From positions 15,614 through 79,613 of the forward strand of contig CAKQKQ010000001.1 of assembly GCA_934249265.1 (NCBI GenBank): DNA of 64,000 nucleotides, in the 5' to 3' direction. Positions 5,017 to 64,000 of this stretch are shown here, in pieces; within the stretch, counting starts at the first letter, position 1, and the number at the start of each line of letters is the position of its first letter. A model generated the notes under the pieces. The model saw nothing but the letters and a program-made list of their open reading frames with translations. It ran no database searches and had not been told where the DNA came from. The DNA is from an uncultured Clostridia bacterium (lineage in GTDB: Bacteria > Bacillota > Clostridia > Christensenellales > Borkfalkiaceae). The position numbers and the translations under genes were made by a program.

Positions 5017-5268
5017 TACGTATTTCCAACCATATTAGAACAATTTTTGCGCCGTCAAGTCGATTTGTACTGCGTTAAACGATATAGTACGCGTTCAGTC
5101 GTTTGCCTTGTCCAAACAAGCCGCAGCCATATGAAAAAAAGACCGACTTGTATGTTTTGCGGTCAACTTTACGGCGTAAAAACACTACGTGCCATAAAAA
5201 TATGCAGAAAACGATAAAACTGTGCCGTATTTGCGGTTTGTTTTACTAAGGTTTGAAATACGTAAAAA
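5017..5268 (+). repeat. copy A of a 250-bp intergenic repeat (partner at 12441-12704)
   Basis: Aligned by eye to 12441-12704 at roughly 85-90 percent identity with a few small indels. Confidence 0.85.
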
Positions 5269-6529: not shown

Positions 6530-7783
6530 ATGAACAAAGTTAATCCGTTTTACGAAAAAAACGCCGTTCCCGTCAACGGGTTTGTGTCGGTTGCCGATTA
6601 CAGCCCCGTTCCGTACAACAAAAACACCGCTTCGCCGTATACTAAAACCAGAATTATTCTTTTAAACGGCGCGGAGTTCGAGGCAAATTGGTTTTTGCAT
6701 CAATTCAGCAGAAACTGCAACAACAACGATTTAAGGCGCGATATCGCCTTGATAAGAAGGCACGAGCAGCACCAACAAAAAATTATTTCGGGCTTAAAAC
6801 CCGTTGACGAAACCGACCTCGAAACCACGATCGGTTACGAACAACTCGCCATCGATTTGACGGCGATACTTGCAAAACACGTAAAGGACGATTACGTCAA
6901 AGACGCCCTTAATTTCGCTTTGCTTGAAGATTTCGACCATTTATACAGATTTGCCAACTTGTTGGAGACCGAACAAGGCATAAACGCCAACGATTTGACG
7001 GGCGGTTACACCGAAATAACCCCCGGTCGACCCACCGTGGCAGAACCCAGACACCCGTATGACGAAATAAACAGACACATTGCCGGTGAAATTGCCGACC
7101 CGTTTACAAAATTGGTCGTATCGATAATCACCGCGGGCGAACAGCAAACGATGAATTATTATATGAACATTGCGGGTTTCCACCCCAGCGAGATAGGTCG
7201 AAAGTTATATTCGGAAATAGCGATGATAGAAGAACAGCACGTTACCGAATACGGAAGTTTGATGGACACGACTTGCTCGTGGCTTGAAAATTGGTTGATG
7301 CACGAATACACCGAGTGTTATTTATATTATTCTTGTTTTGAAGACGAAACGGACGAGTATATAAAAGATTTGTTTTATAAGCATTATTTGCAGGAGTGCG
7401 GGCATTTGCAATACGTCGCAAACTTGCTTTTGAAATACGAGGGCAAACCTTGGCAGTCGGTTTATCCTTGCGGCGGCGATTTCCCCGAATTGTTGCATTT
7501 TGAAAGCAATATCGATTATATCAGAGGCGTGCTTGCAAAAACCATAAACTACACGAGAGCCAACGAAGATTACGCATTATTAAAAGACTTAAAAGATAAC
7601 GCAAATTATTTCAAATATCAAAAACAAAACGTGAAAAAGCCCGAAAGTTTGCCGAGTCATAAAGTGATAGAGCAGCATATCAAAAAATTCGGAACGGATT
7701 ATAGATTCGAGACGAAGAAAAACCCCGTGCCCGAATTGCAAAACAGAAAGTGCGACAACACAAATGTCGCGAGAAAGAAATGA
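6530..7783 (+). CDS. hypothetical protein, possibly ferritin-like diiron-carboxylate fold
   Basis: RBS AAAGGAGA. Helical protein with IEEQH, RRHEQH and LEDFDH motifs reminiscent of E-x-x-H metal ligands. Assignment is tentative. Confidence 0.75.
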   Translation: MNKVNPFYEKNAVPVNGFVSVADYSPVPYNKNTASPYTKTRIILLNGAEFEANWFLHQFSRNCNNNDLRRDIALIRRHEQHQQKIISGLKPVDETDLETTIGYEQLAIDLTAILAKHVKDDYVKDALNFALLEDFDHLYRFANLLETEQGINANDLTGGYTEITPGRPTVAEPRHPYDEINRHIAGEIADPFTKLVVSIITAGEQQTMNYYMNIAGFHPSEIGRKLYSEIAMIEEQHVTEYGSLMDTTCSWLENWLMHEYTECYLYYSCFEDETDEYIKDLFYKHYLQECGHLQYVANLLLKYEGKPWQSVYPCGGDFPELLHFESNIDYIRGVLAKTINYTRANEDYALLKDLKDNANYFKYQKQNVKKPESLPSHKVIEQHIKKFGTDYRFETKKNPVPELQNRKCDNTNVARKK

Positions 7784-7944
7784 CGATTAAAAATTTTATT
7801 TTATAACTTAAAACAATTATATAAACCAATCGATAGAAATTTATAATTTAAAAAAGAAGAGGCACAGCGATAAAAAATATCGCTGTGCCTTGATTTGTTT
7901 TTTATGATAATCGCGCAAAATTCGATTAAACGTTTTTTATACGG

Positions 7945-10281
7945 CTAAACCCAAAGTGTAATTTTGCCGTTTACGTAATGCCAATAGTTTTTGCCGTCTG
8001 CGGGCACGTCTGATGCGTTTTCAATATAAAAGTAAACGGTTGTGCCTTCGGAAAGCGTAAAACCGTCTGGGGTATTGTTTTTCCATTCGCTTTCTGTGCC
8101 GGCAAAATAAATCGATTCAAGTTGTAAGTTTTTACAATCAAATATTTTATTTACGCTCGACGCCAAAGAAACGGGCAATACCATTTTTTTCAAGTTTTCG
8201 CAAAGGGAAAAACAACCTGATCCGATTGTCGTCAAAGTCGACGGCAGTTTAATTTCCGTTAAAGAAGTGCACCACATAAACGCATTGTCTTCTATTTCGA
8301 GTAACCCTTCGGGTAAAACGACGTCGGTTAAATTAATGCAATAATAAAACAAATTCTGAGGAAGTTTTGTAATTCCCGCCGCAAACGTGACGGTTTTTAA
8401 AGATTCGCAATAACAGAAGACGGCTTTTCCGAGCGTTACGCCGCCCGGTATGGCAATTTCGGTAATCGATTTACACGAATTAAACGCGTTATCGTTAATT
8501 TTTTCAAGAGACGACGGCAACTGTACCGTTGTCAGATTTATACAGTCTTTAAATGCTCTTTCTTTTATTTCTTTTATCCCTTCGTGCAGTTCGACGGATT
8601 TTAATGAGCCGCAATTTAAGAAGGTGTATTCGGTTACGTTGCCGCCTAAAATTGACGCCGTTTCCAATGCCGCACAATCTTTAAAACATTTTTTTCCCAC
8701 AAGTGCGCCGTCGGGAATAACTATGTTTTTTAAAGAGGAGCATTCGCTGAATGCGGTTTCATATATTTTTACTCCGTCCGACAATTTGACGTTTGTCAGA
8801 TTAGAACAGTTTCCGAATGCGTTTTTATCGATGATTACACCTTCGGGTATTTCTATATCTTTTAAACTGTCGCAACGAGAAAAAGAGGAATTGCCGATTT
8901 TTTTCATGGTGGACGGCAATTTTACTTCTGTTAAGTTTGTGCAGCAATAAAATGCTTGTTCGGCGATTTCGGTATATCCTTCCGGAATAACAATGCTTTT
9001 AAGTCCGCACATATAAAATCCGCTGATTATTTCAAGAGATAAAGGCAGGTCTATGCTTGTCAGTGCAGAGCACCCATTGAAAGCCGTGTTGTGTATTGTT
9101 GTCAAACCCTCGGGCAATGTTACGTTTTTTAATGCCGTGCAATTGTAAAATGATCGAGAAGTAATATTTTTAAGGTCTCCCGGCAAAATTACGGTTTCAA
9201 GCGTGTCGCATTCGGCAAATACGCATGTGCCCAAAGTTACGTGCTCGGGTATTGTAATGTAAACGAGTTTTGTTCCTTTAAACGCTCCGCCGGCAATATG
9301 TTGAATATTATAAGGAACGTTTACCATGCCGCCGTTAGGGCAACCGTTGTATCCGCAAACAAACTTATCGTTTACTACAACAAGTCCGTCGGGTTGAGCC
9401 GCAAGCCAGGCGGTGCCGTATACGACGTTATTGCCGAATGATTCAATTTTTTCGGGCCACTGTATTTCCGAAAGGGAAGTACAGCCATAAAACAAATATC
9501 CCTCGATTTGAGTAATTCCGTCCGGAATGGAGATTTTTTCTAAAGATTCACAATTGTAAAAAACAGAGGCGCCTATTGACCGGAGTTGTTTTGGTAAGTT
9601 TACTTTTTTTAGGGCATTGTTGAATTTAAAAGCACTGTTTCCGATTTTTTTAACTCCATCCGGTATATTAATTTCGGTAAGTTTTTTAAAGGAGACAAAT
9701 GCGCTGGATCCAATTTCTTCAAGAGTTTCCGGGAATTGTATACCGGTCGTTTTATCGTTAATGGCGGGACCGAAAAGGGTAATAATCGAAAATCCTTCTT
9801 CGGCTATTTTTTTTACGGGGAGTCCCCTATAGTAATCGGGGATTATTATTTTGCCCGTAAGGTCAGCCGTTCCTTTAGATACTTCATATCCGCTTTCGTC
9901 TTCAAGCAACGTATATTTAAGGTTTGGCGTGGGGATAGCCGGCGGCTCGGGTTCGTCTATATCTATAGTGTAAGTATATTTTGTCGTTTCAGAATTGCAA
10001 AAACGTTTGCCGTCGCCTGTGGCAGATACGTTTATTTCATAAGAGCCTTCTTCGGTTATAAATGAAACGTTGAATCGATTTTTGTTTATTTTGTATTCCG
10101 CATCGTTAAAATATACTATATATCCCGTGGCGTTTTCAACCGCATCCCAGATAAGTTCGTCATTTTCTATATGTAAGTTGCTTGGCGCAGGCAATTGTTG
10201 CGGTTTCTCTTTCGAGCATGCCGCAAGCACGCACCCCGCCGCTACAACCAATAACAAAACGTATAGTTTTAAATTTTTCAT
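7945..10281 (-). CDS. BspA-type leucine-rich-repeat surface lipoprotein
   Basis: Lipobox VLAAC. More than 20 repeats of about 23 aa of the form IP-x-GV-x-x-IG-x-x-AF-x-x-C-x-x-L. Confidence 0.85.
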   Translation of the reverse strand: MKNLKLYVLLLVVAAGCVLAACSKEKPQQLPAPSNLHIENDELIWDAVENATGYIVYFNDAEYKINKNRFNVSFITEEGSYEINVSATGDGKRFCNSETTKYTYTIDIDEPEPPAIPTPNLKYTLLEDESGYEVSKGTADLTGKIIIPDYYRGLPVKKIAEEGFSIITLFGPAINDKTTGIQFPETLEEIGSSAFVSFKKLTEINIPDGVKKIGNSAFKFNNALKKVNLPKQLRSIGASVFYNCESLEKISIPDGITQIEGYLFYGCTSLSEIQWPEKIESFGNNVVYGTAWLAAQPDGLVVVNDKFVCGYNGCPNGGMVNVPYNIQHIAGGAFKGTKLVYITIPEHVTLGTCVFAECDTLETVILPGDLKNITSRSFYNCTALKNVTLPEGLTTIHNTAFNGCSALTSIDLPLSLEIISGFYMCGLKSIVIPEGYTEIAEQAFYCCTNLTEVKLPSTMKKIGNSSFSRCDSLKDIEIPEGVIIDKNAFGNCSNLTNVKLSDGVKIYETAFSECSSLKNIVIPDGALVGKKCFKDCAALETASILGGNVTEYTFLNCGSLKSVELHEGIKEIKERAFKDCINLTTVQLPSSLEKINDNAFNSCKSITEIAIPGGVTLGKAVFCYCESLKTVTFAAGITKLPQNLFYYCINLTDVVLPEGLLEIEDNAFMWCTSLTEIKLPSTLTTIGSGCFSLCENLKKMVLPVSLASSVNKIFDCKNLQLESIYFAGTESEWKNNTPDGFTLSEGTTVYFYIENASDVPADGKNYWHYVNGKITLWV

Positions 10282-10305
10282 AATTATATTAATCCTTTTA
10301 AATTT

Positions 10306-11676
10306 TTAACCTAAAAGGAAGTCTAAATAGTCTAAAAACATTTCGTTTAATACTTCCTTATCGTATTCGGTACAGTCGGCATCTTCCTGACAGTTTTCGC
10401 TGTTAATTTCTTGCAATTGATCTTCTAATATAATTTCAAGTCCGCCGGGTGCCGTAATGAGTGGGTCGACAACCCAAATATATGGTTTTTCCGATACTGA
10501 CGGATAATCATTTGGAAAATCGTTTACTTCTGTCTGAATGGAAGAAAGAAGAGAGTAAAACTCGCTCTTTAATTGCCAAATTCCCATCGAATAAACAGAA
10601 CGACCATTGGGGTCAAATTCGTCAAAAACGTCCGAACACGTTGAAAAATTATATAAATTTGCGCTTAAATTATTTGTTAAATCGCCGAGTATATCGACGT
10701 AAAGCGTGCCACCTACGTGTGCAAGAATATTGATGTTTCTGCCGTTTAATTCGTTGACGATGTCGTTATAATACAAACCTATTTTATTTTTGCGCCCTGA
10801 GGTAAAGGTTGAATTTGTGTCGAGTTGGAAGTTGTTTATGTATTCGTATCCGTTGGTGTAAAGATCTTTCCAGAAATCGATATAATCCGAAATCTTTGTG
10901 CTGTCGTGAAAATAGTTGTAATCAGAGCGATTATCACTACCTAAAATATCTTGAGATAAATCCCATATCCCTTCATACATATCTTTTTCAAAATCTTTTT
11001 CTGCAGCGGTGTTGCAATTGTAAAACATGTAAAGCAACAATCTGCGCAACGTTGACGACGCTGCGCAAAGTTCTGCAATATTGTATGATTCAGGCACTCC
11101 GTCTATTCCTATAAATCTTCCGTCAATCAATATCGTGGTATTTTCAAGTATACCGTTTGCACTTAGCATTGTTTTTATGGTATTTTTAAGAAATCTGCTG
11201 TATTTATCCATATCGCAAGGCATAGATGCGTCTGCAAAAGATAAATCGCCGAATTCGGGTTGATAAGGAGATATAAACATTACTTTACACCCTTGTAATT
11301 TTAGACATTCAAACAAATTTTCCAAAACCACAGGGTCGGGTTTAATCGTTTTTATCTCTATAATTACTATATTCATATTATATTGATTAAATCCCCAAAA
11401 ATATCCGGAATAAAGCATATATGTAAGTTCTTGAGGGGTCAACAAGTATTGAATATCATACGTGACGTTTAATCCGATATAAGAATCGAAAATTTCGCCG
11501 AAAGCAGGAGCGGAATCGCTGAAATAATAAATATTGGTCATGGGTGTGTTTGTCTTTGTGTAATCCGCAGAAAGTGCGTTTACTTTTTTCGTTGCTCCGC
11601 CGGCAGAACCAAAGCCTGTTAAAACAACCATAACAGTTGCGATAATAACAATTAAAAAGTTTTTTGTTGTTTTCAT
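10306..11676 (-). CDS. secreted or membrane-anchored protein of unknown function
   Basis: AGGAGG RBS and an N-terminal hydrophobic segment. Lies 25 nt upstream of the LRR lipoprotein gene, so probably co-transcribed. Confidence 0.75.
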   Translation of the reverse strand: MKTTKNFLIVIIATVMVVLTGFGSAGGATKKVNALSADYTKTNTPMTNIYYFSDSAPAFGEIFDSYIGLNVTYDIQYLLTPQELTYMLYSGYFWGFNQYNMNIVIIEIKTIKPDPVVLENLFECLKLQGCKVMFISPYQPEFGDLSFADASMPCDMDKYSRFLKNTIKTMLSANGILENTTILIDGRFIGIDGVPESYNIAELCAASSTLRRLLLYMFYNCNTAAEKDFEKDMYEGIWDLSQDILGSDNRSDYNYFHDSTKISDYIDFWKDLYTNGYEYINNFQLDTNSTFTSGRKNKIGLYYNDIVNELNGRNINILAHVGGTLYVDILGDLTNNLSANLYNFSTCSDVFDEFDPNGRSVYSMGIWQLKSEFYSLLSSIQTEVNDFPNDYPSVSEKPYIWVVDPLITAPGGLEIILEDQLQEINSENCQEDADCTEYDKEVLNEMFLDYLDFLLG

Positions 11677-11977
11677 AAAAATCCTCCTGAGTTTATTAAA
11701 TTATTAATTAATTGTATAATTGTACTGTTACAACACTATAATAACATACCTTTCTTGAAAAATGCACCATTTTAACAAAATTTTCACAATTTATTTAAAC
11801 ATATTTGTTTTTTAACTTTGTTTTTGCTTTATATGCATGGCGGTTTTAAATCGGATTAAATCCATAAAAAGAAACGATAAAAAGATTTATGTTTTACGTT
11901 TTTAACTGATATGCTTGAAATATCGAGGAAAATGAGTTAATATTTATTTAGTGATTTTAGTTTGCGGCTTTGCTGTT

Positions 11978-12024
11978 TTTACTCGATACGTATGCGGTAA
12001 AAACGGCAATACTTACAAAAAAAT
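11978..12024 (+). repeat. dyad-motif repeat, copy a
   Basis: TTTACTCGATACGTATGCGGTAAAAACGGCAATACTTACAAAAAAATA. Same family as 15080-15142 and 16062-16124. Confidence 0.8.
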
Positions 12025-12440
12025 AACGCAAGATTTATAAATACGGCTAAAAATAAGGGCGTTTTATTTTTGTGGTTAAAAATTTAAAAGCGTTTTTGCG
12101 CTCGCTATTTTTCGCGCTTTCGTTTTTTTGCGTTCACTCATTAACTCGTGTTTTTGTGTGTTCGCTTTTTTTGTTTTTACATTCACTCATTTATCTGTGT
12201 TTATTATTTTATGTCCGCATACTTACTCGTGTTTTATTTTTCACTATTTTATTTTTACTCGCAATTTTAATAAAAGGCAAATCGCACTTCCAAGGTTTTT
12301 GTTTGTTTTTTATTGTTATAAATCGATTAATCACAATTTAAAAAGGGGGCGGCAAATTTTAATTTGCTATTGCAAAAGTGAGTAAACGGTGTTATAATAA
12401 AAAATAATTAAGGGTTAAACGGAAATTAATTCGTTTAGCG

Positions 12441-12704
12441 TACGTATTACCAATCCCATTAGAACAATTTTTGCGCCGTCAAGTCGATTTGTACCGCGTT
12501 AAACGACTTTCAAGTACGTATAGTACGTGTTCAGTCGTTTGCCTTGTTCAAACAAGCCGCAGCCATATGCAAAACAAGACCGACTTGTATATTTTGCGGT
12601 CGATTTTACGGCGTAAAAACACTACGTGCCGCAAGAATATACTTTAAAACGATAAAACTGTGCCGTATTTGCGGTTTGTTCTACCAAGGTTTGAAATACG
12701 TAAG
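12441..12704 (+). repeat. copy B of the 250-bp intergenic repeat
   Basis: Aligns with 5017-5268 and ends at the RBS of the following LRR gene. Confidence 0.85.
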
Positions 12705-12715
12705 GGAGGGAAAAT

Positions 12716-14653
12716 ATGAAATCGGGTGATTTATTAAACAGTCAATCAAACGAAAACAACCGAGAGCAAAACGATAATCAAGCAACCGAAGAAATGCAAA
12801 CCGCCGAAAAGAGAGAAAAGTCGAGCGAAACAAAAAGCGATTACATAAAAAAAGAAAATTGCTTTGTTTCTAAAGACGCCAAAGAAAAGCAGCCGCCCAC
12901 GCAAACGCAACGCAAAAGAAAAAAATTGACAATAATAATCGCGTGCATTGCGGTCGTTTTAATCGTGGCGATTACGACGATTTCGGTTTATGACGCAAGG
13001 CACATAAGCAAAGCGGAGTATTGCGGGCGTAAAGATTTAATATCGTTCACTATTCCCGACGGGGTGAAATACATAAGCGAAAGTGCGTTTGAAAACTGCA
13101 CAAACCTCACAAACGTAAAAATTCCAGACAGCGTTGAAAAAATCGGCGCGGGTGCGTTTAGGCATTGTACGAATCTCAGAACGATTAAAATTCCTAATAG
13201 TGTGAAAATTATAGATGAGTATGCTTTTGCCGGGTGTTATAATCTCAAAAAATTGACCATACCCGACAGCGTAACCTATATAGGGGATTCTGCATTTGCG
13301 GGTTGTCGCAGTCTTACTACGGTAAAAATAGGTAAAGGACTTAAAGAAATCGGCGAAGACGCGTTTGAATATTGCTCGAATATAAAAAGTATTTATTATG
13401 CAGATATGGAAACGCTGTGTAATATAAAGGGGTTAAATAGTTTAAACGATGCAGATGATAGGCGGATATATATTAGCGGAAATCTTTTTACCGACTTTAT
13501 TTTTGTCGGAAACATAGAAAACGTACCCGATAATGCTTTTTACCATTGCGAAAATATTATATCGTTTACAATGCGCGGTGGCAAAAAAATCGGCGAAAGG
13601 GCTTTTAAGAATTGTAATTCGCTCGAACGGGTAACTATAGAAAACGTTGAATGTATAGGCAAAAGCGCGTTTGAGTTTTGCAGAAATATCACTTCGTTGA
13701 CTATAGGCGAAGGCGTGAAAAGCATTGAAGACTACGCCTTTAGCGAGTGTAACAAACTCGAAGAAGTCGTTATTCCCGAAAGCGTGCAAGAAATAGGGTC
13801 GATGGCGTTTTACGGCTGTGGCAACCTTAAAAAGATAACGATAAAAAACAGTAAAATAAAAATAAATAAAGACGCGTTCGGGAACTGTAAAATAGAAACC
13901 GCCGACGTGCCCGCGGAAGTTATAGAAAGCGTAGAAAACCCGACGTTGCAAATTTTAAATATAATCGGCGGAGAGGTCATTCCCGACAACGCGCTTTACG
14001 GAAGTAAATCAATTACAAAAGTCACCATTTCAAGCAGTGTGAAAAATATAGGGAAATACGTTTTTATGTATTGCGATAATCTCGACACGATTACGGTAGA
14101 TAAAGACAACCCGATTTATTACGCAAAAGGCAATTGCGTTATAGAAAAAGCGACTCAAAAATTGATTTTCGGTTGCCAAGCGAGCGTTATTCCCGCCGAG
14201 GTAAAGTCGATCGGCGATTACGCTTTTTGCGGTTCGGTTGGGCTTACGCAAATAACCCTTCCCGAGGGGCTTGAAAGTATAGGCGAATATGCTTTTTCCG
14301 AGTGTAGAAACTTAAAGAGTTTTACAATTCCGTCAAGTGTGAAAAATATCGGCGATTATGCGTTTAATCGGTGTTTTAAATTGAGTAGTGTTACTCTGCC
14401 CGACGGAATCGAAGAGGTAAGCGAAGGCTTGTTTTACAGTTGTAGCGTGCTTTACGAGGTGTATATTCCGCAGAGCGTAACATCGATAGGCGACAATGCG
14501 TTTAAGTTCTGCGAAACATTGAAGAGCGTCGAATTTAAAGGCACTGCCGAAGAGTGGGACGCAATAACGAAAGGCAACAATTGGAATTTTAAGGTTTCCT
14601 CTAATTTCAAAGTCAATTGTTCGGGTGTTAGTTCGGGCGATGAAAACGCATAA
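12716..14653 (+). CDS. BspA-type leucine-rich-repeat protein with N-terminal TM anchor
   Basis: RBS GGGAGGG. Charged N-terminal region, then TM LTIIIACIAVVLIVAITTISVY, then about 20 LRR units (IPDSV-x-x-IG-x-x-AF-x-x-C). Confidence 0.85.
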   Translation: MKSGDLLNSQSNENNREQNDNQATEEMQTAEKREKSSETKSDYIKKENCFVSKDAKEKQPPTQTQRKRKKLTIIIACIAVVLIVAITTISVYDARHISKAEYCGRKDLISFTIPDGVKYISESAFENCTNLTNVKIPDSVEKIGAGAFRHCTNLRTIKIPNSVKIIDEYAFAGCYNLKKLTIPDSVTYIGDSAFAGCRSLTTVKIGKGLKEIGEDAFEYCSNIKSIYYADMETLCNIKGLNSLNDADDRRIYISGNLFTDFIFVGNIENVPDNAFYHCENIISFTMRGGKKIGERAFKNCNSLERVTIENVECIGKSAFEFCRNITSLTIGEGVKSIEDYAFSECNKLEEVVIPESVQEIGSMAFYGCGNLKKITIKNSKIKINKDAFGNCKIETADVPAEVIESVENPTLQILNIIGGEVIPDNALYGSKSITKVTISSSVKNIGKYVFMYCDNLDTITVDKDNPIYYAKGNCVIEKATQKLIFGCQASVIPAEVKSIGDYAFCGSVGLTQITLPEGLESIGEYAFSECRNLKSFTIPSSVKNIGDYAFNRCFKLSSVTLPDGIEEVSEGLFYSCSVLYEVYIPQSVTSIGDNAFKFCETLKSVEFKGTAEEWDAITKGNNWNFKVSSNFKVNCSGVSSGDENA

Positions 14654-14674
14654 AAGGAAACAATGCTAAAAAAA

Positions 14675-14714
14675 ACAAAACGGCTGCAATTTACCGCGGC
14701 CGTTTTGTTTTTTT
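14675..14714 (+). terminator. bidirectional terminator after the LRR gene
   Basis: ACAAAACGGC/GCCGTTTTGT stem followed by a T-run. Confidence 0.75.
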
Positions 14715-15079
14715 GTATACATAATGTCTGTTTAATGTCTTTTTAATGCGCGTTAATGTCCGAGCCGAAATTGAGTATGTTTTAAAATTTTAAACAAATT
14801 CGCTTGTTATATCGGCTTAAATGTTGTATAGTTTAAAATATAAGAAATTGTAAACTTGCTTGCAAGGGTTTACAATTTCGCATTTTTCAAACAAAGAAGA
14901 GTAAAGTATCAACATTGCGAGCGCGTTAGCGCAAAATTTTGAGATTATTTCAAGATTTACTTCTTATAGTTTATCGTGTCGATTTAAGTTTGCGCGGCGA
15001 TGAAAATTTCGGCTAAAACAAAAAGTTAGCCTTAAATTTTTTATTCTTGATTAAATTACAAAATTAAAGTTTTGCCGTC

Positions 15080-15142
15080 TTTACTCGATACGTATGCGGT
15101 AAAAACGTCAAAAACGGCAAAATTTACAAAAAATATTAAAAT
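15080..15142 (+). repeat. 63-nt direct repeat, left flank of the TIR-like cassette
   Basis: 60/63 identical to 16062-16124. Contains the dyad TTTACTCGATACGTATGCGGTAAA. Confidence 0.9.
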
Positions 15143-16061: not shown

Positions 16062-16124
16062 TTTACTCGACACGTATGCGGTAAAAACGTCAAAAACGGC
16101 AAAATTTATAAAAAATATAAAAAT
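16062..16124 (+). repeat. 63-nt direct repeat, right flank of the TIR-like cassette
   Basis: Partner of 15080-15142. Ends 15 nt before the rbsK start. Confidence 0.9.
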
Positions 16125-18274: not shown

Positions 18275-18308
18275 CCTTGTTTACCGCATACGTATGCGGT
18301 AAACAAGG
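18275..18308 (-). terminator. 34-nt perfect palindrome, terminator of the phosphatase gene
   Basis: CCTTGTTTACCGCATACGTATGCGGTAAACAAGG. On the minus strand it is followed by TTTTTGCGTTTTT. The core is the dyad motif seen at six other sites. Confidence 0.7.
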
Positions 18309-21168: not shown

Positions 21169-21204
21169 CAGCCCTTAAGGGCTGTTTTGCGTATGCAAAA
21201 CAGC
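21169..21204 (+). terminator. terminator region after the regulator gene
   Basis: Two overlapping hairpins: CAGCCCTTAAGGGCTG followed by TTTTG, and CTGTTTTGC-GTAT-GCAAAACAG. Confidence 0.55.
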
Positions 21205-21282: not shown

Positions 21283-21316
21283 TTTACTTTACGCCATACG
21301 TATTGCGTAAAAACGG
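21283..21316 (+). repeat. dyad-motif repeat, copy e
   Basis: TTTACGCCATACGTATTGCGTAAAAACGG. Confidence 0.7.
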
Positions 21317-37052: not shown

Positions 37053-37132
37053 TCGATTAAAAAAAACAAATTAAGTTTCAATTACATGAATTTGTAATAT
37101 TTTAAATCATTAATCACGATAGAATTTGGCAA

Positions 37133-37257
37133 TATTTTCAGCCTTCTTTGTGTGAGTCGAGCGAGAATTGAATAAATTAAGTTTTAATTCAAAAGTTTTC
37201 GTGCTTTTCAGCCCTCCTTGTGCAGCCGAGTGAGAATCGAATAGATTAAGTTTTAAC
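37133..37257 (+). repeat. two tandem units of about 60 nt in the esterase/GH2 intergenic region
   Basis: TTTTCAGCCTTCTTTGTGTGAGTCGAGCGAGAATTGAATAAATTAAGTTTTAA versus TTTTCAGCCCTCCTTGTGCAGCCGAGTGAGAATCGAATAGATTAAGTTTTAA. A partial inverted copy lies at 37487-37520. Confidence 0.8.
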
Positions 37258-37700
37258 GGCACTAAATTTGTAAAATATTTGTTAAACTCGCTTTTAATAC
37301 CATTCGGTATTAATACGCTCGTTTGCCTTGATTTTCCTAAATTTATTGACGTTAAAATGCGAAGCACCTTAAAGCCATATTTTTTAGATGATTTATTACA
37401 AACGCGAGCGGCGGCATACTATACGTATGACAAGTGAGCGTTTGCGATAAAGGGCAAAAAAGATGTCTTTAAGGCTTAAAGGACTCAATTTTCACTCGGC
37501 TCGGAGGGTGGCACGCAGTATGCGTGACGGAAGGATTGTAAAGGTAATTTTAATAAGAAAGCCGATTTTCGATTCAAAAAAAAGTGATTTCTATTTATGA
37601 GTGAGCGTTTGAGATAATATCAAAAATGTTTTAAGGTTTAAAATATCGATAAGTTATGCTTGGTTGACAACTCAATTATTAATAAAAGGATAAAATATAA

Positions 37701-39574: not shown

Positions 39575-39604
39575 TTTTACCGCTTACGTATTGCGTAAAA
39601 ACGG
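39575..39604 (+). repeat. dyad-motif repeat, copy f
   Basis: TTTACCGCTTACGTATTGCGTAAAAACGG. Confidence 0.7.
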
Positions 39605-44217: not shown

Positions 44218-47200
44218 ATGAAAGTTTTTCTTGCCGACAACTACGTACAAGTAAAAGAAAAAATCGCCGACATAGCAGAGCGGCACGGCAACAACCTCGA
44301 CGACGGGTTGTTGGTTTTTTGCGAGGAAAAATTTACCATGGCGATCGAGCAAAAAATTGCCGAAAGGTGCGGCGGCGGATTTAACAACGAAGTAAGTTCG
44401 TTTAATCTTTTTTTGCGCAAAAACAGCGATAGAAAAAACGTGCTTTCAAGGCAAAGTTCCTCTGTTGTCATGAGAAAAATCATGAGCGAAAACGCCGACA
44501 AACTCTCGTGTTTCAACGCCAAAAACAAGCCCACGCTCCCCGTGACGATATACGAACTCATTGCCCAACTTAAAAGCGCGAAGGTAAAGCCGCAAGACGT
44601 AAGTTTCGCCGCAGAAAACGTAAAAGGCACGCTTAAAAGCAAACTTTTAGACGTGGCTTTAATTTTCGGTGAGTACGAAAAATATCTTTTAAACGGCGGC
44701 TATTTAGACACAAACAACAGTTTTGCCGAAATGCCCGAAATAATTTTAAAAAGCGAAAAAATAAAACGCTCCACAGTTGTTTTTGCGGGTTTTCCGTCGG
44801 TTACGGGGCAAATCGCCGACGTAATCAACGCGGTGATGCTTACCGCCAAAGAGACGATTTTCGTGCTCGTCGGCGGTGAAAACGAGGACTTATATTTAAA
44901 CGAAACTTTATCTTTCTTGCGCTCCGAAGGGCAAATTCTCGATATCGAAAAATGTAATTATTACATAAACGACACAGCAAAAGAAATAAGGGATAATTTA
45001 TTTTGCCCCACTTTAACTCCCGCGCAAAAGGGCGTTGACGGAATTAAAGCGTACGTTGCAAAAAGCCTTTCCGACGAGGTGAAACAGGCCGCTTTACGCA
45101 TAACGTATGAAGTAAAACGGTCAAATATGCGCTATCAAGACTTTACGGTGGCGGTTGGAGATTTGCCGACTTATAAACTTTTGATAAGCAAATATTTCAA
45201 AGACTACGACATTCCGTTTTATATCGACGAAAGCATAAAACTTTCTTCTCACCCGATAATTAAATTGATAGTCAATTGTTTCAACGCTTACATTTGGAAT
45301 TTCGATATGAGCAAAGTTTTGTCCGTCGTTACCGACGACTTGTTCTGTTCCGATAAAGACGTTGTGGATAAGTTTGTCGCTTACGTGATGAGATATGCCG
45401 TCACGCGTTATACCGTAAAAAACAAGTTTACCGAAGACGTCGAAGATATAGACAAAATCGAGGAGTTGAGAAGTAGATTTATAAGCATATTCGATACTTT
45501 AAAACGCCGCGACAGCGTGACAAATTACGTAAAATTTGTAAAAAGACTACTCGAAATAAGCGAAGTTGAACAAAATCTATTGGTTATTTCCGAAAAATTA
45601 AACGCCATGGGCGAACTTATAAAGCAGTCTTTCAACGAACAGTCTATAGACAAACTTCAAGCCGTTTTACTCGATTTAGACACGCTTGCGGGCGACGATT
45701 TCGTGGACGTGAAAGAGTTTTGCGAAATGCTTTTATCGGGCGCAGAAGCGTGTAGTATAAGCATTTTGCCGCAGTATGCCGACTGCGTGTACGTGGGTGA
45801 TTTTTCTTCGGCAAAATACAAGGGCGAAAAGTATTTATTCGCTCTCGGTTTAAATGCCGACGTGCCGCACGTAAAAGCCGATACTGCCGTGTTGACAGAT
45901 AACGATTTGTGTAAACTTGACAGTTTAAGCGTTGTAATCGAGCCCAAAATCAGCATTGTAAACAAGCGTGAAAGGGAGTCTGTCGGATTGACAGTCACTT
46001 CTTTTTCAAGCGGAATTTATATAAGTTATTCCATGCTCGACGCAAAAGGCAAAGCCGACGTGGCGGGCGAACTGTTTAAAGATTTGTGCAAGTTGTTTTC
46101 TGTAAAAGAAAAAAATTACACCGAAAAAGCGTTTTTTAATAGAGAGCAACTCGACGAAAACAAAAACGCCTTGCTCGATTATATTTCCCTTCGCACGGGC
46201 ACGATGAATTTCATGGCGGAGTCTTGCGCTTTTGCGAGCAAAGCGGTTGACGACAACAGACAAAGTTCGGCGTTTTACAAGGCGGTTGAAAAACTCGACC
46301 AAAGCGCGACGGTTGACCTCGATTTACGCCTTAAAGGTTTGGATATTTCCATGAGCGAGGCGACTTCGGGCAGAGCGGCGGGTTCTACCGATTTGTATTT
46401 CACGGGCGGTCAAGTCAGCGTGACCACCTTGGAAGATTATTTTTCTTGTCCTTATAAATGCTTTTTAAAACACGGTTTAAAAATTAAAGAGAGCGACGAC
46501 GGGGCTGTAAAAGTCACCGAGTTCGGCACGTTTTTGCACGCCGTGCTCGAGGAGTTTGTAAACCTTTTAAAAAAGGACACGCAGAGTATAACCGACGAAA
46601 ACTTGCGCGATATAGTGTGCGAAATTTTCGATACCGAGGCGGCTAAAGAGGACTACGCGAGATATTTAAACAAAAAACAAATTTCTTACGCTTTCGGGCT
46701 TTTAAAAGAAGAGGCGGTCAACGTTTGCCGCGAAATTTATTGTTCTTACAAAACGAGCAGTTTTATTCCGTTCGGCACTGAAGTTAGATTCGGCGACAAC
46801 GAGAGATTTCCCGCCGTTAAACTTAAAACGGGCAAAAAAGAGTACAAGGTGCGCGGCGTTGTGGACAGAGCGGACGTGTGCGGAGATTATATAAGGATCG
46901 TCGATTACAAGTCGGGCAAAATAAAAGACGTAAGGGCGAATTTCTACGACGAAAGCATGCTTTATTCGGGTAAAAAACTTCAACTTTATTTGTATATGAA
47001 CGCCTTTGTAAGCGGAACGGGCTACAAACCGGCGGGCATGTATTACTGCGCCGTCAACAATAATTATAGGGGCGAGGGCGAAACCGAGTACCGCACAAAA
47101 CTCATGGGAAAAACCTTGTTTAGCGATGACGTAGCGAGTAAAAGTGACAATTCGCTCGCTCAAGGACACGCCGTAAGCGACATTATCAACATAAAATATT

Positions 47201-47478: not shown

Positions 47479-50400
47479 TTATACTGCGGCTCAAGAAAAA
47501 GCGATAAATCACGAAGGCACTTCCGCACTTGTTTCCGCGTCGGCGGGCAGCGGTAAAACTCGGGTAATGATCGACAGAATAATTAAACTTATTTTGCAAA
47601 AGAAAGCGCAAGTCAACGAAATTCTTGCGGTCACGTTTACTCAACTTGCGGCAAAACAAATAAAAGAAAAACTTTCTTCCGCGCTAATAAAGTCCATTAC
47701 CGAAGAAAATTACGACTACATAAAAGAGCAGTTAAATTTGTTGCGCACGGCAAACATTTCCACGATTCACTCGTTTTGCTCAAACGTGTTGCGCACCTAT
47801 TTTTACGAGGCTGGTTTAGACGCAAACTTTTCTATAATCGACGAAGTTGAGGCGGAAAAACTTAAAAATCAATCGGTAAACGATTTATTCGAGGACAAAT
47901 ACGAGTCCGGCGACGAAGATTTTTTGTCGCTTGTCAAGGTGTTTTCTCAAAAGCGCAGCGACAATTCGCTCAAACAAAACGTAATGAGTATTTACGGTTT
48001 TATCATGGACGAAAGCGAGCCGTTTTCTACTTTTGACAAGACTTTACGCTATTACGACGATAGCGGTTTAAAGGAAATCGAGAACAAAATCTACGACTAT
48101 TCCATTGAAAAAATCGCCCGATATTCAGAGCAACTCGAAGGTTTTGCTGACTACTTTACCGACAACGGTATGCCCAAAACCGACAAAACCGTGCGCGAAA
48201 TCATCGCCGAAACCAAAGTGCTTTTATCTGCAAAAGATTTATCTACGCTTGTGCGTTACGCCCAAACGACGACTTTCGGCACGTTTGCAACCGACGTAAA
48301 AAAGGACGACGACAGATACGTTGTAAAAGCGGCGGCAATGGACGTAAAGACGAAACTTTCAAACCATATAAAATGGATTGTGGGTAAAGTCGGGTTTACG
48401 TTTGCCGACGACAACGTGCGCAAGTATTTAAACATGAAGCCGATGCTTGAAAAATATTTCGACCTTGTGAAAGAGTTTAAAAATTATTTCGACTCGGCAA
48501 AAAGAAGAGAAAACGTCGTTGACTTTTCCGACCTCGAACATTTCACTTACGAACTTCTTAAAAACGACGAAATTTTAACCGCCATTAAGGATTCGTTTAA
48601 ATACATATTCATCGACGAATATCAAGACGTCAACGGTGTGCAAGAGGCGATTTTCAGTTCGCTTTCTTCAAACAATTTGTTTATGGTGGGCGACGTAAAG
48701 CAGAGTATTTACGGTTTTAGGGGGTGTAATCCCGAGTTTTTCGCTCAAAAATACGACAGGTTTTTAAATGGCGACGGTGGCGAAGCGATTTTTCTCGAAG
48801 AAAATTTCAGGAGCGCGCCCGAAATTTTAAACACCGTCAACAAAGTGTTCAATAGGGTAATGCAAAAAGACTTTACGGGTGTAGAGTACAAAGCCAACCC
48901 CATGAAGTACGGCGGACTTTACAAAAATTATCAAGGCGAAACTTTTATTCATTCGGTAAATTTCGATAAAAAGAAAGAAAAGCCCGTTTTCTCGGGTGTT
49001 TACGATATAGAAAAACATTTAAGCATGCTGGGCAAAAGCGAAGAAAATAAAAAGGCGCAATTCCTCGCATGGCTTATTCAAAACGAAATCGGCAAACCCA
49101 TTTACGACTTAAAACAAAACAAAGAAAGGCGTGTCACTTTCGGCGATATCGTCATCTTGACGAGAGACTTCGGCAAAAGCGAAGACGAAACCTTTGCCGC
49201 GCTTTTGTCTTACGGTATACCCGTGTCTACCGAGGCTAAAAAAAGCATAAGCGACTACCCCGAAATCAAGTGGCTCGTAGACCTTTTATCGCTTATAATA
49301 AACCGCACTCAAGACATACCGCTCGTGTCGGTAATGAAAAGCCCCGTGGGTAATTTCGATAATGCCGACCTTATAAAAATAAGAAGCGCGTACCCCAAAG
49401 AAGAGACCTTTTATGGCGCGTTTACGCAATACGTATTGAACGAAAATGACAGTTTAAGCGAAAAATTAAAGAGTTTCAACGCCTATATGGATAGAATAAG
49501 GCTGCTTTCCGAATACGAGTCGGCGAGTGAAATTCTCTCTCGCGTTATCGTCGAGAAAAACGTCGATACTTATTATCTCGGCATGCCTTTCGGGCAAATT
49601 AGAAACGAGAGAATAAATTTATTTATTCAGCATTGCGACGGCGGCAAAAAGTACGGCGTGAGAGAACTTTACGACAGACTCGAGTACGTGCTTAAAAACG
49701 CTACCATATCCATCGTCGGCACTGAAGACGCGGTAAAAGTAATGACGGTGCACGCCTCGAAGGGACTTGAGTTTCCCGTGGTTATTTTAAACGACTGCGG
49801 CAAACGGTTTAGCCTTAAAGATAAAATTTCGGAGATATACAAAGAGAGAAGTTGCGGTATCGCGTTTAAAAATTACGACTATGAAAAAGGCACGGTTTGC
49901 GACGACACGCCGCATAGGCTTATGGCGAATATCGCCTTGACCGAGCGCACGATAAGGGAAGAAATGCGCCTTTTGTACGTTGCGCTTACAAGGGCTGAGT
50001 GCAGATTGCATATCGTCGCATATAACTACGACTTCACCAAGCAAAAGCACGTTTCCGATTTCAACTGTTTTGCCGATTATATTCAAGAAACCGACGCAAA
50101 TATCATGTATTACGAAAACGACGATTACGCTTTGGACGAACGCGAAGCGCAAGAGGGCGCAAGGCAAGTCATCGTTGCCGATTACGATGAAAACACGGTC
50201 AATGAAATTTACAAAAACTTGTCGTTTAAATACGCTTATTCAAGCGATACGTCTCTCCCCGTGAAAAAGAGCGTAACTTCCGCATTAAAGCAAGAGGACG
50301 AGTTTTATGAAAGAACGACTATGTTCGGCGAATCGGACAGCGAAGTCGGCACGGCGTACCACAAAGCACTTGAAATAATCGATTTTTACGGCGATTTCGA

Positions 50401-51018: not shown

Positions 51019-51783
51019 ATGTTGTGCGGAGCGAATATGACCGAAAGTATAATCAAATTTTTGTCAGGAAAAGATTTATTCGGCATAGTAACGTGCTTAA
51101 ATTTTTTGGGCGTGGCGATAGGTATTACGGCAATAATAATCAGACTTTTTTGCGGCAAAAAGCAAAACGACGTTTTAAAAGTCTCTGCATTTTTTATATT
51201 TTCGCTCATTTTGTCCGTGATGCTGTCGGCAACCGACTACTATTGCGGCAACGGGCAATTCGGCGGGGCGTTTACGGTGTTTTTCTACAACTCGCTATAC
51301 GCTTTGGTGTTGTGCGTGATTTTTATCGGGTATTTGTTTGTGGGTGAAACGGCGGTAAAAAAACAGTCGGCGCACATAAAAACCGACGACGAAATACGCG
51401 GCGAAATTCGCAAATATTTTGAAAATAAAAATCCGTTTACCACGGTTGAAAAAGCCGAGTGCTTTGCAGAAAGCGCAGACGAAATCAATTTTGATTATAT
51501 AGATAAATTAATCGACAAACTGCAAAAATACAATTTATCGGCGGAAGATAAAAAGATGGTTGAAGAGATAAGTTTTTTCGTTGCGTCTTATAAAGGCGGT
51601 GGCAACGAAGAAAAAATTAAATTTTCCGACTACATGACGACGTTGATGATTTTATCGGGGAAATACGATACAAATGTCGCGTTTACGCAAGACGTATTGC
51701 GTGAAAATGGCGAAGAAAACACAGAAGGAGACACAAATGATACTGTTTTTCGATACGGAGACGACGGGGCTTGTCCCGGGTAG
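51019..51783 (+). CDS. membrane protein of unknown function
   Basis: GAGG RBS. Four hydrophobic segments in the N-terminal half and an acidic soluble C-terminal half. The 3' end overlaps the next gene by 47 nt. Confidence 0.65.
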   Translation: MLCGANMTESIIKFLSGKDLFGIVTCLNFLGVAIGITAIIIRLFCGKKQNDVLKVSAFFIFSLILSVMLSATDYYCGNGQFGGAFTVFFYNSLYALVLCVIFIGYLFVGETAVKKQSAHIKTDDEIRGEIRKYFENKNPFTTVEKAECFAESADEINFDYIDKLIDKLQKYNLSAEDKKMVEEISFFVASYKGGGNEEKIKFSDYMTTLMILSGKYDTNVAFTQDVLRENGEENTEGDTNDTVFRYGDDGACPG

Positions 51784-52399
51784 AATAATTCAACTTTCAT
51801 ACATAATGCTCGACGGAAACGGAACTCGGGCGAAAAATTTTTTCTTCGGGGTGGACTATATCGAGCCTTCCGCGGTGGCTGTGCATCACTTCACAGTGGA
51901 AAAATTGAGCAGTCTTTCAAACGGGCATACTTTCAGCACCGACATCGACGAAATTGAAAAAGATTTTTCTCAAGCGGACTTAATCGTGGCGCACAACGCG
52001 CGCTTTGATATAGATTTTTTGATAGCCGAATTTAATTATCAAGATAGGCGTTTTAGATATAAAGAATATTTCGACACCATGAAAAAGTTTACGCCCATCG
52101 TTAAAATGCCGCGCGCAAACGGCAAAGGCTACAAATATCCCAAACTTACCGAACTTGCCGAATTTTTCGATATTTACCCATACGACATCAACCGCAACAA
52201 TGCAAAACTTTTCAATTGTTTGTTGCTTGACAGTCACGACGCCCGTTACGATACCACTGCGCTGTATATGTGCTTTGAGGAGGGTGCGAAAATCGACGAA
52301 GAAACGAAAAAATTAAGGAATAAATACGTCTTAAATTGCGTCGATGATGAAAACGGCGACGTTGACAGCGCATTAAAAACCGCAACCACCGCCGAATAA
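51737..52399 (+). CDS. DEDDh 3'-5' exonuclease (DnaQ/epsilon-like)
   Basis: Start MILFFDTETTGL follows GAAGGAGA. Exo I DTETTG, Exo II AHNARFD, Exo III HDARYD. Confidence 0.85.
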   Translation: MILFFDTETTGLVPGRIIQLSYIMLDGNGTRAKNFFFGVDYIEPSAVAVHHFTVEKLSSLSNGHTFSTDIDEIEKDFSQADLIVAHNARFDIDFLIAEFNYQDRRFRYKEYFDTMKKFTPIVKMPRANGKGYKYPKLTELAEFFDIYPYDINRNNAKLFNCLLLDSHDARYDTTALYMCFEEGAKIDEETKKLRNKYVLNCVDDENGDVDSALKTATTAE

Positions 52400-53157: not shown

Positions 53158-53193
53158 TTTTACACGATACGGTTGCGGTAAAGTTGGTATAAT
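53158..53193 (+). promoter_or_regulatory. dyad-motif copy g overlapping an extended -10 promoter of the M6 protease gene
   Basis: TTTACACGATACGGTTGCGGTAAA followed by TGGTATAAT (53185-53193). Lies 42 nt upstream of the ATG. Confidence 0.55.
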
Positions 53194-62934: not shown

Positions 62935-64000
62935 ATGGTAAAAATAGCCCTCATCGGCAGTACGGGGTCGATAGGCAAACAAGTTTTAAACGTTGTAAGA
63001 AGACACAACGATAAATTTAAAATCGTGTCTTTGTCGGCAAACACGAGTTACGCGCTGATAGAGGAGCAAGCGCACGAATTTAAACCCGAGGTATGCACGC
63101 TTACCGATCCGTCGGCGGCGGCAAAAATTACTTCGCTTCCAAGCGGAACGACCTTTTATTACGGCGAAAATTCGGCACTGCACGCAATTACCGAAGATGC
63201 CGACGTTGTTTTCGTTGCAATAACGGGCTTTGCCGCGCTTAAAATCGTGCTCGAAGCGATTAAACTTAAAAAGACTATCGCGCTCGCTAATAAAGAGACG
63301 CTTGTTGCGGGCGGTCAACTCGTGATGAGCGAGGCGAAAAAAAACGGGGTAAACATTATCCCCGTTGACAGCGAGCACTCGGCTATATTTCAATGTTTAA
63401 ACTTTCAAAAGGATAAACCCTTTAAAAATTTGATTTTAACCGCGTCGGGCGGGGCGTTTAGAGATTTGACGATAGAGCAAACGGCAAAAATGACAGCCGC
63501 CGACGCATTAAAGCACCCCACGTGGTCGATGGGTAAAAAAATCACAATAGACTGCGCAACCATGCTTAATAAAGGTCTCGAAGTAATCGAGGCAATGTGG
63601 CTTTACGACGCGCCGCTCGAAAAAGTAAAAGTGCTTATTCACCCCGAAAGCATAGTGCACTCGATGGTAGAATTTGAGGATAACTCGGTAATCGCGCAAA
63701 TGGGCACTCCGTCAATGGAAATTCCCATTCAACTTGCGCTCACTTATCCCGAAAGGCTTTTCAGCGGAGTAGAGCAGTTGTCGCTTGCGGGCAAAACTTT
63801 GCATTTTTACGACGTGGACAAGGTAAAATATCCTTGCTTTAATCTCGCGATAGAAAGCATAAAAATAGGCGGCAACATGCCGTGCGCGATGAATTCGGCA
63901 AACGAAGAGGCGGTTTCGCTTTTCTTGCAGAATAAAATTTCTTATCCCGAAATTGCCGAGTTTATAGCATACGTAATGAGTAAAATTGACAAATCTGGTT
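62935..64000 (+). CDS. dxr: 1-deoxy-D-xylulose-5-phosphate reductoisomerase, 3'-truncated at window edge
   Basis: Absent from the ORF track because no stop lies in the window. MVKIALIGSTGSIGKQ, LANKETLV, PVDSEHSAIFQC, HPTWSMGKKITIDCATMLNKGLEVIEA. RBS GGAGG. Confidence 0.93.
   Translation, partial: MVKIALIGSTGSIGKQVLNVVRRHNDKFKIVSLSANTSYALIEEQAHEFKPEVCTLTDPSAAAKITSLPSGTTFYYGENSALHAITEDADVVFVAITGFAALKIVLEAIKLKKTIALANKETLVAGGQLVMSEAKKNGVNIIPVDSEHSAIFQCLNFQKDKPFKNLILTASGGAFRDLTIEQTAKMTAADALKHPTWSMGKKITIDCATMLNKGLEVIEAMWLYDAPLEKVKVLIHPESIVHSMVEFEDNSVIAQMGTPSMEIPIQLALTYPERLFSGVEQLSLAGKTLHFYDVDKVKYPCFNLAIESIKIGGNMPCAMNSANEEAVSLFLQNKISYPEIAEFIAYVMSKIDKSG

Follow-up and report, generated by a model that had tools for sequence, protein, structure and literature searches.

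The 64,000-nt window analysed here, from an uncultured Clostridia bacterium (assembly GCA_934249265.1, contig CAKQKQ010000001.1, positions 15,614 to 79,613), contains a dispersed family of palindromes whose 24-bp dyad TTTAC-N3-ATACGTAT-N3-GTAAA, hereafter M, is the core of a palindrome of about 44 bp. In genome, viral and metagenome scans the family is limited to one species among the matches listed; its copies are anchored to the 3' ends of genes, and the sequence blocks of its core are kept from strain to strain while the spacers inside it drift. As a tentative explanation, plausible rather than probable, we propose that M is a lineage-specific dyad of the repetitive extragenic palindromic (REP) type, the protein-recognised core of which would be selectively maintained at transcription-unit boundaries, with some copies serving as terminators and with occasional recombination between copies. 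REP-like elements are well studied in Proteobacteria and, to our knowledge, little known in gut Firmicutes.

The original prediction had named seven sites of the motif in the window, and all of them were recovered at their places and with their sequences (M1 to M7, described individually below). All seven are intergenic on the open reading frame (ORF) map, and degenerate copies inside genes come in addition. The pattern TTTACNNNWTACGKWTNNNGTAAA, with at most two mismatches, gave 21 strand matches in the window as compared to 0.10 ± 0.36 in shuffled sequences, and the motif clearly exceeds what base composition yields by chance. The blocks of the dyad also occur together: both outer arms are present at four of the seven ATACGTAT octamers of the window, a ATACGTAT-like centre is found in 8 of the 9 occurrences of TTTAC-N14-GTAAA, and 12 of the 13 half-site matches are parts of full dyads. 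Because of this coupling, the three-block conservation is no artefact of the way the search pattern was worded. The half-site-like GGCGTAAAAAC that had been pointed out inside the 250-bp repeat did not hold up, since its 9 matches are at the level of chance (5.0 ± 2.4 expected).

The alignment of 81 non-coding copies showed the consensus AAAATTGnCnTT-TTTAC-nCA-ATACGTAT-nnn-GTAAA-AnnGnCAAnTT, with a symmetric position frequency matrix and no similarity among copies beyond about ±10 nt from the core. The AAACGG extension described earlier for the plus strand is conserved, but it is in fact part of a two-sided outer arm, AACGRCAA on the right and mirrored as TTGYCGTT on the left. The 5+8+5 blocks of the core are nearly invariant; 95-96% of the core pairs are intact, and the variants are one-sided in 34 cells and compensated in 1. 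Pairing in the N3 blocks, at 44% of cells, is at the level of chance, and apart from the leading half-sites GCA (24%) and CGC (13%) these blocks are nearly random; despite this, the mismatch spectrum peaks at 0 mismatches. Hairpins were predicted at -3.6 to -25.4 kcal/mol (z -0.01 to -7.95), with 5 of 12 copies no more stable than their shuffled versions. The uncompensated core, the unpaired N3 blocks and the uneven stability together indicate that the conserved feature is a sequence pattern and not a structure, and the earlier preference for a protein-recognised dyad over a simple hairpin is supported by these data. The three blocks follow one another at centre-to-centre distances of about 9.5-10 bp, i.e., on one face of B-DNA, a spacing that would suit a dimeric protein. 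The outer arms behave differently: they are paired in 64% of cells, with a covariation score that none of 500 shuffles matched and with far lower scores in slid controls. Covarying columns are, for example, 8/41 (UA/CG/AU) and 11/38 (UA/GC), and on the sense strand the arms contain 42 G-T pairs as compared to 23 A-C pairs.

Other strains were obtained by exact-protein look-ups, which gave 19 orthologous sites with two to six strains each; the sequences compared with the window are cited by L numbers. Conservation of the dyad in orthologous intergenic regions was found here among strains of the same species. Segregating positions amounted to 9 of 342 in the core (2.6%), 11 of 114 in N3 (9.6%) and 53 of 380 in the arms (13.9%), and to 202 of 760 in the flanks (26.6%, partly inflated by indels). 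The core is about four times less variable than N3 across strains (core versus N3, p=0.003; core versus arms, p=2e-8). N3 sits within the core, so that drift of N3 around an intact core cannot be the product of gene conversion or of a recent burst. Purifying selection acts on each copy of M, for the 5+8+5 blocks stay invariant around neutral spacers across strains. M4 is 100% identical in five strains with flanks of about 78% identity, and the core of M6 is identical in L106 even though alignment of the neighbouring intergenic DNA has been lost. Decayed copies form a tail, in which three mismatches occur in 12 copies (0.4 expected) and four mismatches in 17 (4 expected), and decay is visible at the site 21288 in L108 and at site A4 in L121. 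No gain or loss of single copies among strains was seen at the 19 orthologous sites.

The genome scan, with one genome per species, returned at least 61 loci, 39 of them from the metagenome-assembled genome (MAG) CAKQKE01, an uncultured Clostridia bacterium of the Hadza gut. At least 52 exact copies were present in CAKQKE01, with all 13 of its contigs, about 2.04 Mb in total, among the matches listed. One sequence of this MAG (L029) is syntenic with the window over 8.9-20.1 kb at 87-98% identity, so the window represents another strain of the same species. The other genomes among the matches listed, CBCPNG01 excepted, gave single matches at the chance level for 18 fixed bases. Viral contigs gave five matches, all at one conserved coding locus, the plasmid collection contained no match to M and the phage collection weak chance matches alone; a phage or plasmid origin is unsupported by these scans. 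In the metagenome scan, further copies came solely from samples with the same species, e.g., ERZ808262; carrier samples include ERZ4559842, ERZ28569196 and ERZ27287382 as well. The host lineage is isolated as judged by its MgtE homologues, of which the nearest are 96% identical (same species), followed by 81% (a 1.5-kb contig) and then by less than 60%. At the gathering score, Rfam matched three tRNAs in the window and no family at the M sites. A literature search on the motif sequence and on REPs in Clostridia found nothing relevant, and we know of few descriptions of REPs in Clostridia. In CBCPNG01, another uncultured Clostridia MAG, a mostly non-coding stretch of 5 kb (CBCPNG010000031.1, L050 1-5000) contains a related unit, TTTACTnnATACGTATTnAGTAA, at least 8 times, in part as direct arrays with a spacing of 33 nt; such an array could serve a related DNA-binding protein as iterons or operators.

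The genomic context was taken from crude heuristic ORF calls in the window and 39 motif-selected blocks, and the resulting numbers are relative only. Of the 40 convergent intergenic regions M occupies 17 (1.42 sites per kb), as compared to 41 of the 175 tandem ones (1.19) and 6 of the 34 divergent ones (0.43); genuine genes account for about 5 of 89 sites. Among the tandem copies, 31 of 41 are closer to the upstream stop codon, often 2-35 nt away, and the next start codon follows at 9 to 590 nt. One copy is located 2 nt past rplI and 21 nt ahead of the next start codon. The genes directly downstream are unrelated, e.g., ackA (acetate kinase), ispDF, rlmL and the genes of V-ATPase subunit D, RNase HII, a chromate transporter, hydrolases and a response regulator. 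As copies anchor to gene 3' ends, the earlier emphasis on sites upstream of plus-strand genes was misleading. Viewed from 75 gene ends, M itself scores as a terminator in 9 (12%), in 24 (32%) the stop codon is followed by a separate canonical terminator ahead of M, and 32 are without any terminator. At least five T residues follow 9 of the 41 tandem copies, as compared to 5 of 41 on the antisense side, which is little sense bias. Terminator-like copies with an A-tract, a GC-rich stem and a T-tract are M4 (18275-18308) and those in L003, L015, L020 and L027. This placement is REP-like and argues against both a regulon operator and a purely RNA-level element. Among the three roles suggested at the outset, that of a REP element or bacterial interspersed mosaic element (BIME) fits best with the copy number, the extragenic position, the order of convergent over tandem and far over divergent regions, and the proximity to stop codons.

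In the explanation we prefer, the 18 core positions (TTTAC, ATACGTAT and GTAAA) would be read by a sequence-specific, probably dimeric host protein, most likely on duplex DNA and with the N3 blocks left uncontacted, and we propose that this reading is the cause of the purifying selection on the core. The copies would sit where a constraint of 24-44 bp is tolerated or useful, that is, at transcription-unit boundaries directly past stop codons. A subset with GC-rich arms and a T tract may double as an intrinsic terminator or mRNA 3' hairpin, and identical copies would occasionally recombine, leading to gain or loss of gene cassettes; both the terminator hairpins and the copy-to-copy recombination look like side effects. 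M may also take part in DNA topology, insulation or chromosome architecture. Selection copy by copy implies a host-level function and a putative sequence-specific partner. M marks the edges of the variable cassettes for BspA-type leucine-rich repeat (LRR) surface proteins and for the defence-like TIR-8xMP protein, and in this way it may add to the diversity of strains in an uncultured lineage of the human gut. It is, in addition, an easily searched 24-bp signature for tracking the species in metagenomes and a clean bait for the binding protein.

Several points weigh against this explanation. No binding protein for M was identified. The REPs of Enterobacteria and Pseudomonas are mobilised by REP-associated tyrosine transposases (RAYT, TnpA_REP), and neither a RAYT nor any other transposase was found among the 301 ORFs of the 369 kb sampled (about 18% of the genome); neither tblastn searches for IS200 TnpA, Hin and XerD nor a regular expression for the HUH-Y motif gave a match there, which is a weak negative. 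M is fully symmetric and occurs as single units, unlike the tagged and clustered classical REPs. The covariation of the arms and their excess of G-T pairs hint that a hairpin, as RNA or as single strand, is to some extent selected. The genome-wide number would be about 200-220 copies, a figure extrapolated from 7 intergenic copies per 64 kb in one window, and the context counts are as coarse as the ORF calls behind them. A further-reaching proposal, which we consider rather unlikely, is that M is the cis-site of a genome-wide system undescribed in Clostridia. A dedicated lineage-specific protein bound to about 200 boundary dyads would then organise or insulate the chromosome (e.g., by supercoil relief, roadblock termination or SMC handling), or a domesticated recombinase would exchange surface-protein and defence cassettes.

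Recombination between two copies of M did occur at the LRR645 cassette. This 3.1-kb segment on the plus strand (12002-15079) is composed of a promoter region, a 250-bp repeat and a BspA-type LRR gene. In the window it ends exactly at two identical 24-bp copies, M1 and M2; the cassette is present in the window strain and in L115-L117 and is missing from L029 and L108-L113, each of which keeps exactly one M copy. The chance of both breakpoints falling inside M is about 0.02 over all variants, as a rough estimate. The neighbouring [LRR778 + 456-aa] block (7781-11977), missing in L115-L117, also has its right edge at an M copy, and further breaks were located 4-25 nt from M copies in L102/L012, in L085/L056, after 21311 and in L124. 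One could suppose from this that M is a recombination core of the att/lox/dif type, with arms for recombinase binding and with TACGTA as an overlap that has to be the same in partner sites, and that the system moves single-gene cassettes (LRR, TIR-8xMP) by insertion, excision or shuffling. The invariant centre would fit such an overlap, direct repeats of about 58 nt, each opening with M, lie on both sides of the TIR gene, and the rare N3 pair TCG/GCG is common to three neighbouring copies. We regard this as quite unlikely, because the palindromic centre lacks polarity, about 200 active sites would scramble the genome, and most copies flank housekeeping operons, are stable among strains and show no insertion polymorphism at the 19 sites. 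About 7 of about 22 structural variants, tallied by eye, fall within 30 nt of M as compared to about 4 expected; an apparent enrichment of breakpoints faded with more strains, and M was not established as a recombination hotspot. The mobile 250-bp repeat, a 3-kb AraC cassette and a 213-aa gene move independently of M, and changes within the LRR and TIR genes likewise have no relation to it. The shared flank of about 58 nt on the right is homogenised within each strain, which fits homologous exchange or gene conversion better than a crossover restricted to the core. Thus, of the suggested role as a recombination site, the bounding of the LRR645 cassette by identical copies is retained, but there is no general enrichment of breakpoints and no recombinase in the 369 kb.

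Reading M as an RNA element, i.e., a 3'-untranslated or inter-cistronic hairpin which terminates transcripts or protects them from 3' exonucleases and is recognised at its conserved apical and basal sequences by an RNA-binding protein or RNase, would account for the many copies 2-60 nt past stop codons, some of them within operons as in the rplI case, for the covarying arms with their G-U excess on the sense strand and for the subset of good terminators. This is unlikely all the same, as N3 does not covary, core changes are uncompensated, stability is not conserved, T tracts show little sense bias, about a third of the copies lie beyond a separate canonical terminator and no Rfam family matched. 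The original suggestion of a global dimeric regulator, with M as the operator through which it controls the downstream genes, is disfavoured and in our opinion very improbable. The conserved dyad does have protein-like recognition blocks, several copies are 9-75 nt ahead of start codons, and M7 overlaps the -35 and spacer region of a promoter-like sequence at 53185-53193. But M is scarce in divergent regions, which contain only promoters, it is anchored to the upstream stop codon, it keeps no fixed distance to the start codon and has no associated -10 element, and the genes downstream are functionally unrelated housekeeping genes. M resembles none of the operator consensuses known to us (cre, Rex, LexA, CIRCE, AraR, PurR). 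A reading of M as a promoter was also rejected: its arms resemble the GACA of a -35 element, yet no -10 partner for these GACA-like arms was found. A high copy number, restriction to one species, extragenic position and the decayed tail could be expected as well from a purely selfish REP or miniature inverted-repeat transposable element (MITE), which depends on a transposase in trans (RAYT-like or other) and has no host function, and the same genome holds a second, demonstrably mobile repeat, the 250-bp element. Bursts or gene conversion, however, cannot yield an intact core around nearly randomised N3, there is no presence/absence polymorphism of single copies among strains, target-site duplications and similarity beyond about ±10 nt are lacking, and an HUH transposase was not detected in the sampled 369 kb; a selfish element is thus improbable.

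Among the known systems, M is closest to the REP/BIME elements and REP doublets (REPINs) of Enterobacteria and Pseudomonas. Like M, these are short palindromes (20-45 bp) in hundreds of copies, extragenic, lineage-specific and preferentially located in unidirectional or convergent regions downstream of genes, and they sometimes act as terminators, mRNA stabilisers or substrates of rearrangements (PMC3733652 and general background). In M, the 24-bp core within the palindrome of about 44 bp, the seven intergenic copies per 64 kb, the 52 or more copies in CAKQKE01 and the placement at gene 3' ends in convergent and tandem regions correspond to this description. In contrast to REPs, M conserves a 5+8+5 sequence pattern with non-pairing N3 blocks rather than a stem. 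No one-sided tag corresponding to the asymmetric unpaired tag of REPs (GTAG/CGTC) was present in M, and BIME- or REPIN-like doublets were not found, the sole close pair (L061 3099/3498) being a direct duplication. The search for RAYT, as described above, gave neither an IS200-like tblastn match nor an HUH-Y motif. Without tag, doublets or, so far, RAYT, M is classified as REP-like for working purposes, and not as a proven REP member.

The dRS3 repeats of Neisseria (ATTCCC-N8-GGGAAT), with the Neisseria intergenic mosaic elements (NIMEs) and minimal mobile elements, are also generally known as dyads of the 20-bp class with hundreds of intergenic copies, which bracket variable segments and mark sites of cassette exchange or element integration as M does. 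Their sequences are unrelated to M, though, and dRS3 flanks RS units and is targeted by a Piv-type recombinase of filamentous prophages; neither a Piv-type partner nor a mosaic array of the Neisseria kind was seen around M. Dispersed, selected palindromes unrelated to the regulation of neighbouring genes are further known from the binding sites of Noc (NBS), SlmA (SBS), MatP (matS) and XerD (XDS), which are 12-16 bp long, occur in tens of copies and are bound by a dimeric protein. As compared to M, they are shorter, fewer, often intragenic and confined to particular chromosome regions. The XerCD site dif (B. subtilis ACTTCCTAGAATATATATTATGTAAACT) resembles M in that GTAAA is placed 12 bp from the dyad centre in M as in the XerD arm, and a subset of M copies reads AATACGTATTATGTAAA. 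The conserved palindromic part of dif consists of the inner arms, positions 7-12 and 17-22 (PMC3025954). These inner arms (..CATAA / TTATG..) fall on the variable N3 of M, and dif is single-copy and asymmetric; M was rejected as a dif/Xer site for its variable inner arms, its multi-copy state and its symmetry. The sequence ACCCCGCAAAATTTAAATTATGTAAACC in a convergent intergenic region (L049 1078-1105) looks like an 11-6-11 dif-type site or half an M, and it could be the dif site of the species.

Other classes were rejected as well. Some copies of M are like intrinsic terminators, but M conserves sequence and not stability, and a stable hairpin with a sense T tract is present in a minority only. 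The class of transcription-factor operators with a regulon was set aside for the start distance of 9-590 nt, the depletion in divergent regions and the heterogeneous genes. Unlike integron attC sites, which belong to cassette arrays beside intI and are defined by their structure (R''/L''-L'/R' boxes and extrahelical bases), M is dispersed beside housekeeping operons, is conserved in sequence rather than in structure and has no integrase nearby. DNA uptake sequences (DUS) and uptake signal sequences (USS) are units of 9-12 nt that are found singly in both orientations at a density of about one per kb, some of them forming inverted pairs; half-sites of M are in 12 of 13 cases found in full dyads, and the density is about 1 per 9 kb. 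M is not a MITE either, as there are no flanking direct repeats, the left and right N3 differ, and single-copy polymorphism was absent at the 19 sites; the N3 blocks are not direct repeats and thus not a target-site duplication.

The individual copies of the window are given here without strand. M1 extends over 11970-12009, with the core TTTACTCGATACGTATGCGGTAAA at 11978-12001 and paired outer arms TTGCTGTT/AACGGCAA; it is the left boundary of the LRR645 cassette and folds with -16.8 kcal/mol (z -4.7). M2 (15070-15113, core 15080-15103) has the same core and the arms TTTTGCCGTC/AACGTCAAAA; it is the right boundary of the cassette and opens the first member of the direct repeat around the TIR-8xMP gene. 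M3 (16062-16085), TTTACTCGACACGTATGCGGTAAA, has one core mismatch, is located 8 nt past the TIR-8xMP stop codon and 54 nt ahead of rbsK, and has the same right flank as M2, AACGTCAAAAACGGCAAAATTTA. In these TIR-8xMP-flanking copies (15104-15126 and 16086-16108) there is a tandem doubling of the right outer arm, AACGTCAAAA-ACGGCAAAA, and the same right arm in other strains (L108 9049-9070) reads ATTGACAAAATCGACAAAA, which gives a perfect TTGACA hexamer. M4 (18275-18308) was verified as the perfect 34-nt palindrome, CCTTG-core-CAAGG, that had been described, with its core starting at 18280; it lies between convergent genes and is terminator-like for the minus-strand phosphatase gene (-24 kcal/mol, z -6.5). 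M5 (21288-21311), TTTACGCCATACGTATTGCGTAAA, is 255 nt ahead of the glycan locus and about 85 nt beyond the separate canonical terminator (21169-21204) of a LacI-family gene, and its left half differs among strains. M6 (39576-39599), TTTACCGCTTACGTATTGCGTAAA, is located between the convergent GH2 and MgtE genes. M7 (53159-53182), TTTACACGATACGGTTGCGGTAAA, is degenerate, lies 52 nt ahead of a 654-aa gene and adjoins TGGTATAAT, which resembles an extended -10 element.

The additional copies inside genes are weaker. A degenerate one inside addB (45093-45116) is kept in strain L106, and a half-site copy inside addA (49421-49444), TTTACGCAATACGTATTGAACGAA, is in frame F-T-Q-Y-V-L. Further degenerate copies were found at 51682-51705 (two mismatches; inside or overlapping the ORFs 51019-51783 and 51674-52399) and at 63961-63984 (one to two mismatches; inside the ORF starting at 62935), and a weaker copy at 55294 is also inside a gene. 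The in-gene copies at 49421, 51682, 55294 and 63961, together with that at L049 1558, are almost always in the frame TTT-ACN-NNA-TAC-GTA, i.e., F-T-x-Y-V, and encode peptides such as AFTQYVLNEN (AddA), AFTQDVLREN and FTRYVLRKN (class-V aminotransferase). A TAA stop codon falls in one of the three reading frames of M.

The strain comparison also showed variable elements other than M. An island with genes for two serine recombinases of large size, 497 and 535 aa (Resolvase + Recombinase + Zn_ribbon), is present beside a tRNA cluster in L108 (1-3180), L109 (1-3160) and L112 (1-3335) and has no M at its edge; at the corresponding place, about 5671 in the window, the window strain carries tilS and tRNAs instead. 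The 250-bp repeat is found at 5017-5265 and 12442-12700 of the window and at 7063-7320 of L118, and it is polymorphic among strains: both window repeats are missing at the same positions in L115 and L116, and the copy of L118/L006 is missing in L119. More of these repeats are present in L006, L018, L020 and L102, usually directly upstream of LRR genes, and the element behaves like a mobile, MITE-like leader element. The 3-kb AraC cassette has three genes (an AraC/GyrI-like regulator, 141 aa and 203 aa; L119 257-3254 as compared to L118 about 2962-2977), is variably present at a site flanked by the desulfoferrodoxin and FAD-oxidoreductase genes, and has no M at its edges. A 567-nt insertion with a 171-aa ORF is located between smc and ftsY (L124 1418-1984 as compared to L122 about 1986-1993), 25 nt past an M copy, and the ribosome-binding-site sequence AAGGAGAA is doubled at both of its ends. 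Upstream of the GH2 gene, the window has a gene-free, repeat-rich tract of about 610 nt (37059-37672), in place of which about 6 nt are found in L106.

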